Positions 12,644 through 19,516 of a stretch of 59,127 nt of DNA are shown one piece after another. This DNA is from an uncultured Candidatus Saccharibacteria bacterium (GTDB lineage: Bacteria > Patescibacteriota > Dojkabacteria > GCA-002793355). A program made the translations under genes and the position numbers. The notes below the pieces were generated by a model. That model saw only the letters and a list, made by a program, of their open reading frames with translations, had not been told where the DNA came from and did not search any database. Where the stretch lies: contig CAZGEO010000002.1 in NCBI GenBank assembly GCA_964525295.1, forward strand, positions 324,551 to 383,677. Reading direction: 5' to 3'. Within the stretch, counting starts at the first letter, position 1. Every line of letters begins with the position of its first letter.

Positions 12644-13116
12644 ATAAGCAAGCAATAGCAATAGCATTGGGTATTGGACTCCTTTTTTTAATTGGTTTTG
12701 TTTGGTCGACATATCGAGCCAGTGCTTCAAAAGAACAAACCTCTTCCCCAAAAACATCGAACCAACCTACAACAAAACTGTCTGTTCAAAGAGTTTCAGC
12801 TGAGAAGTTTAAGATAATGTTTGAAAGTGATGACAACGCGCAATTAATAGATATCCGAACCGCATCAGAATATAATGAAGAAGGGCACATTTCTACTGCA
12901 AAGAATATTGATTATTACAGTAAAGCCTTTCGTGTCGAGTTAGATCGGCTTGATAAAGCAAAAACAACGTATGTCTATTGCCGTTCAGGAAACAGGTCTG
13001 CATCTGCAGTAGCTTTAATGCAAACAATGGGTTTTACAAAAATCGTTGAATTAGACGGTGGAATTCTCTCGTGGAGTTCAGCCAATTTTCCACTTGTTAA
13101 GACACTTAGTGACTAG
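12640..13116 (+). CDS. Rhodanese-like domain protein with N-terminal membrane anchor
   Basis: LIDIRT..EY..GHI, active-site loop YCRSGNRS and LDGGILSW. Confidence 0.9.
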   Translation: MNKQAIAIALGIGLLFLIGFVWSTYRASASKEQTSSPKTSNQPTTKLSVQRVSAEKFKIMFESDDNAQLIDIRTASEYNEEGHISTAKNIDYYSKAFRVELDRLDKAKTTYVYCRSGNRSASAVALMQTMGFTKIVELDGGILSWSSANFPLVKTLSD

Positions 13117-14089
13117 AAAAAATCTTCTTGAAAATCTTTTTCAGTTTCTTTTTATCGTGTCGTAACAGACTTCTTATTAATTTATCTCCACCTTGCTTTT
13201 TTATAACGTTCCCGACGACAAGATCAGCTCTATAAATAGTGGATGAGCTTGGTAAATCATCTGAAATAACATGTTCACCAATTTCGAGATAGCGTTTCAA
13301 GCCTTCTCTTGGTAGCTTGCCATTGTTAATCAGTATGATGTCTGGGTATCGTTTGCAATATTTCGCAATTTCATCAACATGATTCTGCTGAGAAAATCCT
13401 CGAGTTTGCCCTCGTTTACTCATCAAATTCGTTATATAGATGAATTTTGCTTTTGAATTTGCTATTGCGTCAGCAATACCATCTACAATGCAGTTTGCAA
13501 GAGTTGTTGTGTAGAGATCACCAGGGCCAAGAATTACATAATCTGCTGATAAAATTGCATCTATAGCTTTATCATAAGCCTTCACCTGTGGGGTAAGGCG
13601 CAAATTGACAATGTGACTCTCCTCATCCTTGGTATTAGGCTCGTCGATTTTGTGTTCACCTAAAAGAACTTTTTGATTCTCGTAGGTTGCCGTTAATTTC
13701 GCTTGCTCAAGTGTTACCGGTAAAATTTTACCCTTAACCGCAAAGAGTTTACACGCTGCATCGATAGCGCCCAATTCAGTATCTTTTATTGTTGAAAGTG
13801 CCATCATAATTAGGTTTCCTAATGTGTGTCCTTCTAAACCTTCTCCTTTGTCGAATCGGTACATAAAAATTTGTCGTAGGAGTTCATTTTCATTGTCTTT
13901 TGAAAGAGCGAGAATTGATTTTCGCAAGTCACTTAAGGGTAAAAGTCCAAATTCATCGCGGATAACTTGGTTGCTTCCGCCATCGTCGGTCATATTTACG
14001 ATTGCCGTAATAGAATTATTACGTAGCTCTTTTAATGCTTGTAAAACTGCAAAAGATCCAGTACCACCGCCTAATACTACGATATGCAT
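13106..14089 (-). CDS. yvcK: YvcK/GlmR (CofD-like, UPF0052) family protein
   Basis: IVVLGGGTG, DDGGS, GHTLGNL, ILGPGDLYT and C-terminal RHD motifs. Confidence 0.92.
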   Translation of the reverse strand: MHIVVLGGGTGSFAVLQALKELRNNSITAIVNMTDDGGSNQVIRDEFGLLPLSDLRKSILALSKDNENELLRQIFMYRFDKGEGLEGHTLGNLIMMALSTIKDTELGAIDAACKLFAVKGKILPVTLEQAKLTATYENQKVLLGEHKIDEPNTKDEESHIVNLRLTPQVKAYDKAIDAILSADYVILGPGDLYTTTLANCIVDGIADAIANSKAKFIYITNLMSKRGQTRGFSQQNHVDEIAKYCKRYPDIILINNGKLPREGLKRYLEIGEHVISDDLPSSSTIYRADLVVGNVIKKQGGDKLIRSLLRHDKKKLKKIFKKIFSSH

Positions 14090-14178
14090 AAATCATTATA
14101 GCAGGTGACGATTCAGTCCTTATTTCGTGAGTGTTAAATGTATTTTAGTTGTAGTACTACAGTAGGCAGAGAAGTTCT

Positions 14179-14207
14179 TTGACATTGATGAGGTCGTACG
14201 GTAAAAT
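14179..14207 (+). promoter_or_regulatory. Sigma70 promoter of tRNA-Asp
   Basis: TTGACA 14179-14184, 17 nt, TAAAAT 14202-14207. Confidence 0.8.
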
Positions 14208-14219
14208 AACGGTATCAAT

Positions 14220-14294
14220 GGGGCTGTAGCTCAACTTGGTTAGAGCACCCGCCTGTCACGCGGGTGGTTGCGGGTTCGAATCCCGTCAGCCCCG
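14220..14294 (+). tRNA. tRNA-Asp(GTC), no encoded CCA
   Basis: Acceptor GGGGCTG/CAGCCCC, anticodon arm CCCGC-CTGTCAC-GCGGG, T-arm GCGGG-TTCGAAT-CCCGT, discriminator G. Confidence 0.97.
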
Positions 14295-14295
14295 T

Positions 14296-14341
14296 ATGGG
14301 TGTTTGGCACTGTGTAAACGGTGGCAGACACCCATGTTTTT
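14296..14341 (+). terminator. Intrinsic terminator-like hairpin right after tRNA-Asp
   Basis: ATGGGTGTTTG/CAGACACCCAT stem with inner CACTG/CGGTG, followed by GTTTTT. Confidence 0.8.
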
Positions 14342-14345
14342 ATGT

Positions 14346-14506
14346 AGGGATTCGAGACTCAAGGAGAATGTAGTCACCTACATTCGACGAAGAGCTGGAA
14401 CGCGCCTAAAATCCTTTGAATTTATCAAGTGCAAATTTCGTGACGAGTGTGCGTAACTTTAACCAGGTAGAAGTGTTGCGAATGTAGATTAGTGAGTCCG
14501 AAATTT
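14346..14506 (+). ncRNA. tRNA-associated structured motif, copy 2 (Asp locus)
   Basis: Helices AGGGATT 14346-52/AATCCTT 14410-16, GAATGTAG 14366-73/CTACATTC 14378-85 and AAATTTCG 14433-40/CGAAATTT 14499-14506. Confidence 0.7.
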
Positions 14507-14525
14507 GGTGGGTGTTCGAATCCCG

Positions 14526-14870
14526 TCAGAATTTTGTAAGTAGCAAACTTTTTAAACGTTTTATATTAGTTAAGAATAGATGAACATCTTTTTGTCGGTC
14601 GGAAAGATCGCGAACCTCGTAGGGGTTCGCGTCTTCCTCCTTTACCGATTCTTTAGGAATATCGACGCTTGAGTTAAATACCTGTTTGAATAAATCGTAA
14701 TCAATCATGATTTTTAGTGCGTGAAAAAAATAGGCGATTTGAGCCTCTACAAAGGAAAGTAGCGAGTTATATGATTCTATGAGTTCATCGCGAGAAAGAA
14801 TAACACCGTACTTCTTTTTAAAAAATTGTTGGAGTTTTTGTAATTGAACATCCGTTGGTTTGGCAGACAT
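14526..14870 (-). CDS. Hypothetical protein, possibly a mobile-element remnant
   Basis: N-terminus LQKLQQFFKKKYGVILSRDEL. The TGA stop falls inside the tRNA duplication, and the 3' half spans a DNA hairpin at 14601-14637. Confidence 0.45.
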   Translation of the reverse strand: MSAKPTDVQLQKLQQFFKKKYGVILSRDELIESYNSLLSFVEAQIAYFFHALKIMIDYDLFKQVFNSSVDIPKESVKEEDANPYEVRDLSDRQKDVHLFLTNIKRLKSLLLTKF

Positions 14871-15050
14871 GTGAATTTTGTACGAACACAAAAAACAAGA
14901 AAAACTTTGAAGAGATTCTTAATTAGTTGTGTATGACTTGTTCACTGCCGAAATGTTCTTAATAATTATATCAGAGGTAGTAATTATTGTTAATGTCATT
15001 TCACGACAAAAAGTTGTACAATATTTTTGTTTAAAATTTACTTCAACGAT

Positions 15051-15380
15051 ATGTCCGAAGCAATGCATAAAACATTTTTGTCAGCAATAGACCAAAGAAA
15101 AATAGTCGCTATTAAATTTGATTCAAAGGAAAAAGGGATAATAACAAGATTGTGCATCCCTTTTGACTTTGGACCTTCAAACAGGAAGTTGGAACCAAAT
15201 CCACACAGATATCATTTTTATGATTTGGATAGTCCTGAAGGCAAGCACAATCTCTCAATACTACCTGAGCAATTATTAGAAATTACGTTAACAGAGAAAT
15301 CGTTTTTGCCTGAAGATTACGTAACGTGGAATCCTCCATATAAGTGGCATATAGAAAGGAATTGGGGGAAATATTCGTAA
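15051..15380 (+). CDS. Stand-alone WYL-like domain protein
   Basis: Pattern AIDQRKIVAIKF...TRLCIPFDFG...RYHFYD...LLEITLTEKSF matches the WYL spacing (AI..r..v.i.Y...R.v.P...Y....I..i.....F); no HTH. Start is 15051 or 15063. Confidence 0.55.
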   Translation: MSEAMHKTFLSAIDQRKIVAIKFDSKEKGIITRLCIPFDFGPSNRKLEPNPHRYHFYDLDSPEGKHNLSILPEQLLEITLTEKSFLPEDYVTWNPPYKWHIERNWGKYS

Positions 15381-15386
15381 ACAAAT

Positions 15387-17276
15387 ATGAAACTCAAAAA
15401 AGTAAGAATTATAAACAATAAATCTTGTCGAAAGCTTAGTATAGACTTATCGCAAGATACCCCAGATATATATATTGGCATCAATGATAGTGGAAAAAGT
15501 ACGATTTTTAAGTCCCTAGATTGGTTTTTTGATGAGAGAAAGCAGTTACTGGTAAGTGGAACAATTAATGATATATCGAATTCACCTGTAAATGTTGCTG
15601 AATTCAGTCAATTTATGACCGAAAATGATTGTTTATATTTTGATCTATATACTGAAAGGTCAATTGTGGTTATCTGTGAGTTTGAGATTGAGGCTCAAGA
15701 TATTAGCAATACAAACTTGCAGGCAGATGGTAAGGCGAACTTACTTAAATGGGCAACCGCTACAGCTGACAAATTAGTGATTCTAAAGTACCAAACCGGA
15801 GAAGGGGAACTAAGCGCGAATGGTTACTATGTTTTAGCTGAGGATTATTTTGATAGTACTGAAAATAATTATTTGCAAGCATATTCTGCAAGTGCAACAA
15901 AACTAACTGAATTAATTAGAAAATTTGGTATTACGGCTCAAGATATAGAAAATCAAAACGGTGTTGGAAGGTATACTAATCAAGAAAAGATTAGAGCCAT
16001 CTATAAAAAACTAGAACCTGAATTAAAACAAATTTGGGTCAAATATGATGATTTTTCAAGAAATAAAATATATTTTCCTGAATTTAAATATTTAGATTGG
16101 AATTTTACACTTAAAGACTTGGAGGATATGGCAACATCAGCCATGAAATCAGTTACAGAAAGGTACCTTACCGAAATTCAAACGATTACAAATGAAAAAG
16201 AAAAACAAGCTCAGATTGATGTAAATACCAAATTTAACGAACTTATGCAAGCAACCAAAAGAGAATTACCGTCACATATCAAATCAATACAATCTAGCGT
16301 AAAATTCTCTGTATCGCAATCTGTTCAAGACTTAACAGTTACAAAAGATGGAACAGATGGCGATATTCAAATCAATAATCAAGGTGATGGAATAAAAAGA
16401 CAAATATGGTTTGCTATTCTAAAAGGTGAAGCAACTCCCAGCGCAGCTGCTTCGGAAGTACAGCCTTCAAGAATTTGGAGTTTTGATGAGCCTGAAACTC
16501 ATTTACATCCCGTTGCTCAACGAAATTTATCTCAAATTCTCAGCGATATGACCCATAACGGTTTTCAGATTCTGATTTCTACGCACTCAACAATATTTAT
16601 TGATAAAGCCAATATTGATAAAATTAATCAGGTGTATCTGTCGAGCGGCTACACTTCGATAAACAAATCTACATGTGTGAATGATATTCTAGAGACCTTA
16701 AATGTCAGAAATAGTGATTTTTTAATAAGTGATAAATTTGTTTGTGTAGAAGGTCCAACAGAGTTTGAGCTAATACCAGCAGTCTACAAACTTATTAACA
16801 ATAGGTCGATGAGCGAAGACGGAATAATGTTAATAAATCTGAATGGGTCTGGCAAATACAAAACTATGAAGGAATACCTAACACAGGTTGTCAAAGATTT
16901 TGGTCACACCGAACGCTCATTGTTTTTTCTATTCGATAACGATGTTACATATGAAGGTGCAAATATATTTAAGATAGGAAAATTCGATATTGAAGATAGC
17001 CTACCGAATTCACTTTGGATCCAACTTGTAAAAGATACTTGCGGTATTGATTTGTCAGAAGAATCCATAAATGACGAAATTCGCAGTAAACTTGGTAGTA
17101 CTCAAAGTCAGAAGTTCTATGAATTGCTAGGTGGATATGTAGCAAAAAGTACCAAAGGAGCATTTTATTTACCAAGCAAACCCGAATGTGCAGAACTTAT
17201 AGCCAGCTATATCACTGATACAAGCTTAGTTCCGCCTGAACTTTTAGAGTTTGTTGCAAAATTAAAGGAAGGCTAG
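15387..17276 (+). CDS. OLD-family ATP-dependent nuclease (ABC ATPase plus TOPRIM)
   Basis: Walker A GINDSGKST, signature QGDGIKR, Walker B FDEPETHLHP, ISTHS switch, TOPRIM VEGPTE and FDND, and DIED. Confidence 0.88.
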   Translation: MKLKKVRIINNKSCRKLSIDLSQDTPDIYIGINDSGKSTIFKSLDWFFDERKQLLVSGTINDISNSPVNVAEFSQFMTENDCLYFDLYTERSIVVICEFEIEAQDISNTNLQADGKANLLKWATATADKLVILKYQTGEGELSANGYYVLAEDYFDSTENNYLQAYSASATKLTELIRKFGITAQDIENQNGVGRYTNQEKIRAIYKKLEPELKQIWVKYDDFSRNKIYFPEFKYLDWNFTLKDLEDMATSAMKSVTERYLTEIQTITNEKEKQAQIDVNTKFNELMQATKRELPSHIKSIQSSVKFSVSQSVQDLTVTKDGTDGDIQINNQGDGIKRQIWFAILKGEATPSAAASEVQPSRIWSFDEPETHLHPVAQRNLSQILSDMTHNGFQILISTHSTIFIDKANIDKINQVYLSSGYTSINKSTCVNDILETLNVRNSDFLISDKFVCVEGPTEFELIPAVYKLINNRSMSEDGIMLINLNGSGKYKTMKEYLTQVVKDFGHTERSLFFLFDNDVTYEGANIFKIGKFDIEDSLPNSLWIQLVKDTCGIDLSEESINDEIRSKLGSTQSQKFYELLGGYVAKSTKGAFYLPSKPECAELIASYITDTSLVPPELLEFVAKLKEG

Positions 17277-17456
17277 TATAAACCAGTTTCCACTTCGTCC
17301 CAAAATCCCCTCTCTATTTTATTAAAAAATTGCAATAATCATTTACCCTCTCTGTGATTGTCCATATAATCCTGAGCACCTCTTCGAGGGGTATTGGGAA
17401 GATTGCAGGCAGAAATGTCAGTAGAAGAGAGCAGTCTTAGTTCCACTTCCCCCTAC

Positions 17457-18200
17457 TTATTCCAACCCATCCAACGTATTTTTAATCTTTTCTTTCAATT
17501 CGTTTTGAAATTCGCGACATTTATTCTGTAAATTTGTGCTCAACTCAACAGTTCGCAGGGAAGGCTTTTTTTTTTCAATTATTTTTATTGGAAGCCCTAA
17601 TGCAATATTGAACACTTCTGTGCGACGTAAATTTTGTTCAGGAACTTCGGCTTGAATCATCTTTGATAGTTTAGCCGGTATTAGTCCCGATAGAACATTG
17701 TATACGTTATCCAATGGATGCTTTAAAATTGGAATGAATTCTACCTCAATATCCTTTCGGTAAGTATTTTGGAAACCCAAATCTTCCGCAATTATTGTAT
17801 ACCTGTTTATTGATAAATGATTTGCTTCAGCTGCCTTAACGAGCAAATCTAGTGCAATATGCGCAGCCGTGCCAGCACCAATCTCGTCATCTAAGAAAAG
17901 AATATTTAACGATTTATCAACTTGATTCAGCGCGTTCGTAACATTCGTTAGTAGAGATTCATGATTAACGTCATATCCAATTTTTTCTGCACGAAATATT
18001 GGTAAATATAAGTATTTTGGCGTAGTAACTCTAAGATGTGATAAGGCAATATCATACAAATATGTTATTGAAATTCCAGAATTTGCAGCTCCGATCACTA
18101 AACTGAAGTTCAGACTATCACTCGCTGCTAGTCTTTTTAAGAGTGTTAAAAACATCTTCAATGATTTATTGGCTCTTTCGCTAGTTACATTTTTTTCCAT
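17457..18200 (-). CDS. Type I phosphoribosyltransferase-domain protein
   Basis: PRPP-binding loop ILFLDDEIGAGTAA. Start ATG 18200 follows TGCTAGAAT. Confidence 0.7.
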   Translation of the reverse strand: MEKNVTSERANKSLKMFLTLLKRLAASDSLNFSLVIGAANSGISITYLYDIALSHLRVTTPKYLYLPIFRAEKIGYDVNHESLLTNVTNALNQVDKSLNILFLDDEIGAGTAAHIALDLLVKAAEANHLSINRYTIIAEDLGFQNTYRKDIEVEFIPILKHPLDNVYNVLSGLIPAKLSKMIQAEVPEQNLRRTEVFNIALGLPIKIIEKKKPSLRTVELSTNLQNKCREFQNELKEKIKNTLDGLE

Positions 18201-18256
18201 AAAGTATTCTAGCAGTAATTTTACAACTGTTCTGAATTCTATGTTACCATCTCCTA

Positions 18257-18703
18257 ATGTACGAACTTGATAAAGACAAAGCATTCCTTGTGGCCGTTAA
18301 GGCAATAATTCAGAATTCGAAGAATGAAGTGTTACTATTAAAGGTCAACACAGAACTTCGTGACTCAAACAAATGGGATCTTCCCGGTAGTTTGATGGAA
18401 TTTGACGATAGTGTTGAAACTAGACTAAACAAAGAAGTGCTTGAAGAAACGGGGCTTACATTACAGAACTGGAGGTTGCTTGAGGTATCAGAGACTATAT
18501 TTGAAAGATTTACTTTCGGTGATGAAGTAAAAGATGTTAAAATCATTGTTATCGGCTTCACAACAAATGTTATGGAGGAGAATCTAAAGATTATATTGTC
18601 AGACGAACACGACAATTATAAATGGTTCAGTTGGGAATCATTGCGAGAAATTGAACTTTCTAAGCCAACCCGGGCAATTGTTGGTAAAAATTTGCACGCA
18701 TAG
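18257..18703 (+). CDS. Nudix hydrolase
   Basis: WDLPGS, Nudix box LNKEVLEETGL and LSDEHDNYKW. Confidence 0.88.
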   Translation: MYELDKDKAFLVAVKAIIQNSKNEVLLLKVNTELRDSNKWDLPGSLMEFDDSVETRLNKEVLEETGLTLQNWRLLEVSETIFERFTFGDEVKDVKIIVIGFTTNVMEENLKIILSDEHDNYKWFSWESLREIELSKPTRAIVGKNLHA

Positions 18704-18725
18704 TAAATAGGTATACAATTGCTAG

Positions 18726-19328
18726 ATGTCTGATTTAAGCAAAAAGTACGAACACATTAAGTTTTCTATGTTAACGAAAACAATCGAGCGGGCAGTGTTT
18801 GCTAGCGCAGATTTGGCTCGAAAAGAGAATGTGGCAGAGCATACGTTCATGATGTCACTAATTTTTTGGACACTTAAAGAAGATCTTCTTGAGGAATTTC
18901 CCACTCTAAACGTTAGTAAAGTGTATGACATGATCCAAATTCATGACTTAGCAGAAATAATTACCCAAGATATTTCAACCTGGACACATTTAGATAACAA
19001 CGCAGATAAAGATAAAAATGAAAAAATCGCAAATGAAGAAATTGCGAAAAACCTACCCGAAAAGAAGTCAACTGAATACAACAATTTGATTAAGGAACTG
19101 GAAAGCTTCGCTTCGCTTGAAGCTAAACTCGTTAAGGGTATCGATAGATTATCACCTGCGATTCAGAGAGTGGTAACAAAACAGGGTTGGGTAACTGAAT
19201 CTCATACAGAAGCAGATTTAGACAATATACAACTTCCACGCGTCAACTTTAGTAAAACTCTCTCGTCAATCTATTCGTTATTGAAAATCGAAGCAAAAGA
19301 GCTTGGAATTTTAAAAAATACGAACTAA
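18726..19328 (+). CDS. HD-domain hydrolase (YfbR/HDDC2-like 5'-deoxynucleotidase)
   Basis: ENVAEH, IHDLAE..TQD and LEAKLVKGIDRL motifs. Confidence 0.85.
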   Translation: MSDLSKKYEHIKFSMLTKTIERAVFASADLARKENVAEHTFMMSLIFWTLKEDLLEEFPTLNVSKVYDMIQIHDLAEIITQDISTWTHLDNNADKDKNEKIANEEIAKNLPEKKSTEYNNLIKELESFASLEAKLVKGIDRLSPAIQRVVTKQGWVTESHTEADLDNIQLPRVNFSKTLSSIYSLLKIEAKELGILKNTN

Positions 19329-19390
19329 CAAAAGAATTGAAATATAAAGAAATTACACATTCTGGGTTGGAATAGTATATAATTCGTATT

Positions 19391-19516
19391 ATGGGACAAA
19401 AACCAGAAACAGAAATCAAAACGGCTAAGAATGAAACTTACAACTATATTGTCTCACGTCAGAAAGCCTACGGAAATTCTCGTGTCGAAGGTATACCAGT
19501 TTCTAGAGGTTGCTAA
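19391..19516 (+). CDS. Possible 41-aa small protein (MGQKPETEIK...GIPVSRGC)
   Basis: ATG 19391 lies shortly after TATAAT in the leaderless arrangement; below the ORF track cutoff. Confidence 0.35.
   Translation: MGQKPETEIKTAKNETYNYIVSRQKAYGNSRVEGIPVSRGC

Follow-up and report, generated by a model that had tools for sequence, protein, structure and literature searches.

A predicted WYL-only protein encoded upstream of an OLD-family nuclease in a Candidatus Saccharibacteria bacterium: a candidate exchangeable accessory of ABC-ATPase immune effectors

Introduction

Nucleases of the OLD family join an N-terminal ABC-type ATPase to a C-terminal TOPRIM domain carrying a conserved Glu and a DxD metal site. 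Class 1 OLDs are defined as single genes, and how they, and ABC-ATPase defence proteins generally, sense infection is an open question (PMC10568477). P2 OLD is described, in a 2026 preprint, as an inactive tetramer that opens on recognising single-stranded DNA (ssDNA) hairpins or aberrant DNA (bioRxiv 10.64898/2026.07.10.737580). Gabija (Class 2), retron-OLD (Class 3) and PARIS (Class 4) resemble the arrangement proposed here in combining an OLD-type effector with a second component that supplies or modulates sensing. A helical insert in TOPRIM is typical of Class 2 and missing from Class 1. This locus lies in a 59,127-nucleotide (nt) stretch of DNA from an uncultured Candidatus Saccharibacteria bacterium (assembly GCA_964525295.1, contig CAZGEO010000002.1, positions 324,551 to 383,677; hereafter, the window). 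Within it, an OLD-family gene directly follows a gene for a protein of 109 amino acids (aa) that is predicted to consist of a WYL domain and a Trp-rich tail.

WYL domains are known sensors of ssDNA; those of DriD (7tzv, 8tp8) and CapW (9c5g) bind it, and these structures were solved with ssDNA in the WYL domain (PDB entry titles). Like BrxR, CapW, DriD and PafBC, the small protein has the WYL barrel, is associated with diverse defence systems and is encoded first in its locus, at the 5′ end. In contrast to the helix-turn-helix (HTH)-WYL(-WCX) architecture of BrxR, CapW and DriD, it is a single domain. We lean, with slightly better than even confidence, towards a mobile OLD cassette, associated with tRNA genes, in which the WYL-only protein serves as an exchangeable ligand-sensing accessory and not as a transcription factor. 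If this is true, a conserved and swappable WYL-only partner would offer a tangible candidate for the part of such systems that senses infection or gates the response.

A predicted OLD nuclease with a coupled small gene

An earlier note on this DNA had placed a WYL-like open reading frame (ORF) of about 110 aa 6 bp upstream of an intact ABC-ATPase/TOPRIM nuclease, and the coordinates and motifs agree with it:

15051..15380, forward strand: small gene with predicted WYL fold, 109 aa (family WYL-A); ATG at 15051, TAA at 15378-15380
15387..17276, forward strand: predicted OLD-family nuclease gene, 629 aa; ATG at 15387, stop at 17274-17276
16728..16886, forward strand: predicted TOPRIM nuclease core; Pfam match over aa 448-500, with VEGPTE at aa 454-459; DND at aa 517-519 lies beyond it

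The two genes share a strand and are separated by 6 nt (15381-15386). No terminator-like site lies between them, and they would probably be co-transcribed.

Both hallmarks of the OLD family, the N-terminal ABC-type ATPase and the C-terminal TOPRIM domain with its conserved Glu and DxD site, are present in the 629-aa protein. Pfam matches comprise AAA_15 (residues 1-405, E-value 7e-32), AAA_21 and OLD-like_TOPRIM (PF20469, residues 448-500, E-value 6e-9). The highest-scoring PADLOC model is ‘Old’ (2e-39), above those for AriA and GajA; the AriA model covers only the ATPase half. The ATPase retains Walker A (GINDSGKS, 31-38), Walker B with the catalytic residues (D367-E368) and the H-loop (STHS, 398-401), while the TOPRIM domain retains VEGPTE (454-459) and DND (517-519). 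Judged from these motifs, the protein is an OLD-family nuclease that is predicted to be catalytically intact. A sequence search of the PDB returned the Thermus scotoductus OLD (6p74) as the sole match, over one stretch of 48 residues.

By gene content the window OLD appears Class-1-like, because neither a helicase nor a retron accompanies it. Its fused ATPase-TOPRIM architecture is that of P2 Old, the T. scotoductus enzyme and the Vibrio cholerae Class 1 OLD, although its identity to solved OLDs is very low and the coupled gene 6 nt upstream departs from the single-gene definition. The earlier note had seen no UvrD helicase or reverse transcriptase nearby, and Pfam likewise found neither in the set of ORFs examined from 10.8 to 21.6 kb, which encode a RIO kinase, three Nudix proteins, a rhodanese, CofD, an HD/YfbR-like protein, a weakly phosphoribosyltransferase (PRTase)-like protein and unknowns. 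Rfam gave only tRNA-Asp over 13000-19500, and no retron RNA. The locus differs from retron-OLD in having no reverse transcriptase domain among the tested neighbours and no noncoding RNA, and from Gabija in lacking the gajB helicase, the downstream gene being instead a convergent, weakly PRTase-like ORF of 275 aa. PARIS encodes AriA and AriB (DUF4435/TOPRIM) separately, whereas a single fused ORF of 629 aa is found here.

A large and unannotated WYL-fold family

The description of the small ORF as WYL-like and without an HTH is borne out at the level of the fold, although the Pfam WYL model (PF13280) is not matched. Its AlphaFold2 model (pLDDT 91.8, pTM 0.83) comprises one helix followed by a five-strand barrel. 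In a Foldseek search of the PDB, ranks 1-19 are all WYL domains (probability 1.00, template-modelling score on the query 0.48-0.64, E-values 1e-3 to 2e-2), led by BrxR (7qfz), PafBC, DriD, CapW and 6oaw, with a CRISPR-associated WYL protein lower down. On this model, the protein is a WYL-type Sm/SH3-like barrel with a Trp-rich tail and nothing else; no HTH, WCX or other domain is found in its 109 aa. Since it has no DNA-binding domain, it cannot act as a classical HTH-WYL repressor, nor switch promoters on or off in the way of BrxR, CapW or DriD. By sequence, it has no match at an E-value of 1 or less in Pfam, NCBIfam, PADLOC or PHROG, and the profile of its family (WYL-A, also termed A1) returned nothing from PDB sequences at E-values up to 10.

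The small ORF is nevertheless a real gene by its conservation, because more than 130 homologues (E-values of 3e-28 or less, 50-65% identity, about 102-110 aa) and 333 family clusters at 50% identity were found. The homologues span Patescibacteria, Clostridia, Bacteroidota, Fusobacteria, Campylobacterota, DPANN and Methanosarcinales, while the clusters, from an exhaustive profile search, cover both bacteria and archaea. Nearly all of the best 150 clusters of the 333 are single-domain proteins of about 100-110 aa, with a few longer ones that carry no known domain. WYL-A is therefore a large family, yet one that is unannotated in the family databases.

Conservation in the alignment centres on the motifs R-x-C-[IV]-P-F-D-[FY]-G-P-S, R-Y-H-F-Y-D-L-D-S-P and H-N-L-S-I-L-P-x-Q, and the Trp-rich tail terminates in R-[DN]-W-G-x-x-S. 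The conserved basic and aromatic residues are K28, R33, R53, H55, H66, R103 and three Trp. That identity stays at 50-65% across bacteria of the candidate phyla radiation, Clostridia, Bacteroidota and archaea (DPANN or Methanosarcinales) speaks against a target protein peculiar to one host and points to a universal ligand. A phage origin of the small gene was considered and rejected, as only one of 2.9 million viral contigs (IMG/VR), and no phage record, carries it.

Recurrent and exchangeable ABC-ATPase partners

The neighbourhood of the small gene was surveyed in loci drawn from species-representative genomes (51), metagenomes (80) and a single viral contig; dereplication left 115 unique loci. 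An ABC-type ATPase lies within 750 nt of the small gene in 50/115 unique loci (43%), and in 35 of the 73 that extend 1 kb or more to each side of it (48%). These adjacent ATPases fall into six classes:

OLD-like: 15 loci
SMC-like, ~835 aa: 12 loci
PDC-S06/AAA_13: 12 loci
PDC-S46: 8 loci
Ppl-like: 2 loci
LmuB: 1 locus

The PADLOC models recovered among the partners are Old, PDC-S06 (E-values down to 0), PDC-S46 (3e-265), LmuB (4e-140) and Ppl. On the same strand, the ATPase is downstream of the small gene in 37 loci and upstream in 11.

Co-occurrence of the small protein with OLD nucleases, which the reading in the earlier note requires, is thus seen in 15 of the 115 unique loci. The order is that of the window in 11 of these 15, nine of which have a gap of 3-21 nt or an overlap. 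The two-gene defence module proposed from the window holds insofar as the pairing recurs, but not as a fixed or OLD-specific system. The small protein also precedes at least five other ABC-ATPase families and non-ATPase defence genes; in addition, a near-identical OLD exists without it (L138), and it occurs alone on ColE1-type plasmids. Other neighbours include type I and type II restriction-modification (RM) genes, a Dam methylase, Shedu, HipA-like, PD-(D/E)XK with RNase H-like and HD/dGTPase-like genes, as well as some housekeeping genes.

PDC-S06 and PDC-S46 are single-gene candidates in PADLOC, and both are preceded by the same small protein, which no PADLOC model includes. As the earlier note had suspected, the arrangement falls outside the named systems, none of which contains this protein, and the small WYL partner is absent from the published OLD classes examined. 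A literature search, which did not cover the ABC ATPase classification of Krishnan et al. 2020, turned up no description of ABC ATPases with a stand-alone WYL protein as partner.

The slot upstream of OLD

The association was also followed from the nuclease, starting from homologues of the window OLD (33-47% identity, about 630 aa) and inspecting eight independent loci. The slot directly upstream of OLD is filled as follows:

L135, L137: WYL-A gene
L134, L136: gene for a 67-70-aa KTSC protein (PF13619)
L140: gene for a 96-aa protein of a second stand-alone WYL-fold family (A2)
L133, L138, L139: empty

Closely related nucleases thus have different small partners. The OLDs of L135 and L012, both with WYL-A, are 84-90% identical to that of L140. 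Immediately ahead of the L140 OLD lies an A2 gene, and this OLD shares 89% identity with one that is linked to WYL-A. The OLD of L136, with KTSC, shares 65% identity with that of L001.

The A2 family has 22 homologues and adjoins OLD in all three loci examined (L140, L146, L147). Its predicted structure (pLDDT 93.8) is also a barrel, with the WYL domains of DriD, PafBC and BrxR as the top PDB matches. Similarity between the A1 and A2 profiles is marginal (hhalign E-value 8.5e-5, probability 60%), and a single A2 sequence matches A1 weakly. Between KTSC and WYL-A, hhalign found no similarity. Two WYL-only families and KTSC sharing one slot, which is sometimes empty, argues for a real functional link between OLD and the small protein that is optional and modular, and not for an obligatory antitoxin.

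These data bear on the possibility that the adjacency is accidental, with unrelated defence and mobile genes merely co-localised in islands. Defence genes do tend to group together, and the neighbours of the small gene are diverse. Chance would however have to produce 15 OLD-adjacent loci in unrelated lineages, most in the same order with a 3-21-nt gap or an overlap, the filling of the same slot by A2 and KTSC beside closely related OLDs, and ABC ATPases next to the small gene in 43-48% of loci. We consider this explanation very improbable.

Two further observations concern this OLD clade. The KTSC genes directly upstream of OLD lie at 2798-3001 in L134 and 2786-2998 in L136, and in PDB 8wiv a HerA-type ATPase bears a C-terminal KTSC domain as a fusion. 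DUF2130 (PF09903, ~420-435 aa) is a recurrent third neighbour, located before the small gene or after OLD (L012 3087-4394, L135 4901-6181, L136 1497-2771, L137 1382-2647, L138 1702-2982). L001 has a 421-aa ORF in the DUF2130 position, and the domain does not occur in the window.

Licensing, autonomy or restraint

In the proposed mechanism, OLD would be the effector, in which an ABC ATPase serving as sensor or motor is joined to a TOPRIM nuclease, and the small protein a trans-acting, exchangeable accessory of ABC-ATPase immune effectors. The small protein may recognise a universal sign of infection, for which the likeliest candidate is single-stranded nucleic acid, the kind of ligand bound by the WYL domains of DriD and CapW. 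Once bound to its ligand, it would contact the effector and tune the ATPase-nuclease switch from an inactive to an active assembly. It would thereby license OLD or widen its range of triggers, a role that is favoured over that of an obligatory antitoxin-like brake since OLDs survive without the small protein. Among the possible roles, licensing or trigger-widening seems to us plausible while falling somewhat short of an even chance; autonomous regulation appears unlikely, and restraint of the nuclease equally or slightly more so.

Several observations weigh against the accessory reading. About half of the loci have no adjacent ABC ATPase, and no fusion to an ATPase or nuclease domain was found by a Rosetta-stone search of the best 150 of the 333 clusters. 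Apparent OLD/small fusions in L069, L092 and L095 were rejected, being overlapping starts instead. Seen from the nuclease, the slot is empty in three of the eight loci, and the OLD of L137, which has WYL-A, is 87% identical to that of L138, which lacks it in the same operon context. The tree of the small protein, built on 104 alignment columns with little resolution, is not clustered by partner type (eight changes of the OLD label over eight rows, equal to shuffles). It offers no hint that the protein co-evolved with the surface of any one partner, and suggests that partners are often exchanged. Finally, 4.3-kb ColE1-type E. coli plasmids carry a 34%-identical homologue with no adjacent ORF larger than 136 aa. 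The lack of clustering by partner and the copies that stand alone on plasmids count as genuine evidence against the two proteins being obligate physical partners.

The small protein could instead be an autonomous regulator or sensor of defence islands that never touches OLD, for instance an Sm/Hfq-like post-transcriptional regulator that binds RNA or ssDNA and sits at the 5′ end of many defence genes, as BrxR and CapW do. Such a regulator would fit the unclustered tree, the non-ATPase neighbours in about half of the loci and the lone cargo gene on small ColE1-type plasmids. It would also fit the very high conservation of the small protein whatever its partner and the gaps of 60-250 nt that separate it from several partner classes. 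Yet the protein has neither an HTH nor another effector domain, and where its gene overlaps an OLD or AAA_13 gene, or lies only 3-6 nt from it, there is no leader RNA for it to target. The gap of 200 nt in the ~835-aa ATPase class is itself an ORF of ~62 aa and no leader, and a bias towards a single superfamily, ABC ATPases in 43-48% of loci, is unexpected for a generic island regulator. On balance, autonomous action is an unlikely account.

Alternatively, the small protein may be an antitoxin-like inhibitor that restrains ABC-ATPase nucleases until a ligand or proteolysis removes it, and small plasmids would carry it as an anti-defence gene directed at the ABC-ATPase systems of their hosts. 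The tightly coupled small gene upstream recalls type II toxin-antitoxin pairs, WYL regulators are generally relieved by ligand, and the small plasmids on which the gene stands alone are of a kind typically attacked by SMC-type defence. However, the OLD of L138 persists without the small gene at 87% identity to its paired counterpart, and there are partner-less relatives in L133 and L139. These cases indicate that OLD by itself is not lethal, barring a copy of the small gene in trans. Antitoxins are usually less conserved than toxins, the opposite of what is seen here, and a presence in one of 2.9 million viral contigs and in no phage record is odd for an anti-defence gene. We regard an inhibitor as improbable.

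A broader version of the accessory reading is conceivable, though we hold it only tentatively and expect that it may well fail. Mini-proteins of ~70-110 aa, comprising at least two WYL-only families and KTSC, would be general, exchangeable, trans-acting sensor subunits of ABC-ATPase immune effectors in bacteria and archaea, the effectors being OLD, PDC-S06/AAA_13, PDC-S46 and SMC/LmuB-like ATPases. They would read single-stranded nucleic acid and set the response of each ATPase-nuclease. ‘Class 1’ OLDs and several ‘single-gene’ candidates, among them the catalogued PDC-S06 and PDC-S46, would then become two-component systems.

Copies in Escherichia coli and on plasmids

Five E. coli plasmids of 2.8-4.3 kb carry a small-protein homologue of 33-34% identity, and a related copy is present on two more E. 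coli chromosomes, one of which was looked at. On that chromosome (L144, NZ_CP104681.1), a tRNA-Phe island encodes an SH3-domain protein and the WYL homologue, which is directly followed by an AAA_13 ATPase of 798 aa (E-value 1e-156); the island also has genes for an unknown of 262 aa, a DEAD/DEAH helicase of 1090 aa and an integrase. The pair of small gene and 798-aa ATPase is that of strain 2022CK-00450. This is a native E. coli context in which the idea is directly testable. On an Arcobacter plasmid, the WYL homologue has an SbcC-like gene on one side and, on the other, a gene for an AAA_13-like ATPase of 707 aa, which it overlaps by 4 nt.

On other small E. coli plasmids (2.8-3.8 kb), a 237-aa unknown follows the WYL homologue (L141 1545-2258, L145 2477-3190, L148 4501-5214), so that the ‘lone’ status of the homologue holds only for the ColE1-type plasmids. 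A common Rep protein was considered for this neighbour and rejected. The 237-aa protein has seven plasmid matches, among them a Klebsiella homologue whose gene adjoins one for an anti-phage dGTPase and a fragment of AbiH. The 237-aa protein may be another effector partner.

Signs of mobility

The earlier note had placed the module beside tRNA-Asp, and the gene is indeed there. A partial copy of its 3′ end lies between it and the module:

14219..14295, forward strand: tRNA-Asp(GTC), probable integration target of cassette-bearing mobile DNA
14513..14529, forward strand: att-like scar, a direct copy (16/17 nt) of the tRNA-Asp 3′ end (14273-14289)

The sequence of the tRNA-Asp 3′ end has two matches in the window versus 0.06 expected. 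Guanine-cytosine content is 0.32-0.35 over 14.5-17.2 kb and 0.36-0.43 around it. No integrase was found in the window. Related cassettes begin 190-320 nt past tRNA-Gln (L135), tRNA-Trp (L140) and tRNA-Leu (L146), and in L146 an integrase follows OLD. As part of the favoured reading, and with the same modest lean, the region would be a horizontally acquired two-gene cassette of anti-phage type beside tRNA-Asp.

A different setting is seen in L137, where the pair is embedded in a type I RM operon in the order HsdM-DUF2130-small-OLD-HsdS-HsdR; L001 has the same layout by ORF sizes. Such nesting of defence genes within type I RM or Hma operons is the theme of Payne et al. (bioRxiv 10.1101/2024.01.29.577857). 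The window cassette differs in lying beside a tRNA among housekeeping genes, outside any RM operon.

Flanking sequence and genes in the window

Two short elements lie between the att-like scar and the small gene:

14993..15022, forward strand: candidate promoter of the two-gene unit, ATGTCA-18-TACAAT, 28 nt upstream of the small-gene ATG
14961..14988, no strand assigned: inverted repeat AATAATTA-N12-TAATTATT, probably outside the module

The candidate promoter is a consensus match only (9/12), and the regional count of such sites is not above that of shuffles. The inverted repeat, already recorded in the earlier note, is present but not significant: perfect 8-nt inverted repeats occur at ~1.1 per kb in the window, and 14% of shuffles of the 159-nt spacer hold one (P about 0.14). 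It also overlaps a strong promoter-like site on the reverse strand (TTAACA-17-TATAAT, 14993-14965). Being at chance level and overlapping this site, the repeat is no evidence of a module operator, and that role was rejected.

The reverse-strand site would belong to a 121-aa ORF (14526-14891, reverse strand) that is divergent from the small gene and whose stop falls inside the duplicated tRNA-Asp 3′ end. This ORF has no family match and no homologue in the other small-gene loci. Downstream, the convergent 275-aa ORF (17457-18284, reverse strand) resembles PRTase-CE weakly (Pfam E-value 0.007) and the retron-type PRTase_III-A (PADLOC 2.5e-5); Nudix, HD/YfbR-like and Nudix genes come after it. 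Both flanking ORFs were rejected as parts of the module because they are missing from every other locus, which leaves a module of two genes only. The stretch was found in two DNA runs of a subsurface metagenome and in no RNA runs.

Other arrangements of the small gene

In loci with the ~835-aa SMC-like ATPase, the constant ‘gap’ of ~200-225 nt that separates its gene from the small gene encodes an unannotated, helical-looking micro-ORF of ~62 aa (e.g. MKFDKNKDE...), seen in L016 (4756-4971), L027, L058, L064, L068, L085, L099, L100 and L104. The array thus consists of three genes, and a leader RNA in this position was rejected. A different three-gene array has the small WYL gene followed after 23 nt by a conserved ~155-aa unknown (L088 3754-4221, L089, L112, L114, L124, L126), after which an SMC-like ATPase of ~800-820 aa comes in L088, L112 and L114.

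Several of the Flavobacteriia loci (L031, L036, L037, L041, L042, L045) place the small gene in a context of dNTP metabolism or dGTPase defence, with no ABC ATPase. The large subunit of ribonucleotide reductase is encoded upstream of it in L031, L036, L037 and L042, and an HD/HD_assoc dGTPase-like gene lies downstream in L031, L037, L041 and L045. In L011 (7140-9904), it is flanked by an IrrE-like Peptidase_M78 gene and a PD-(D/E)XK + RNase_H_2 fusion.

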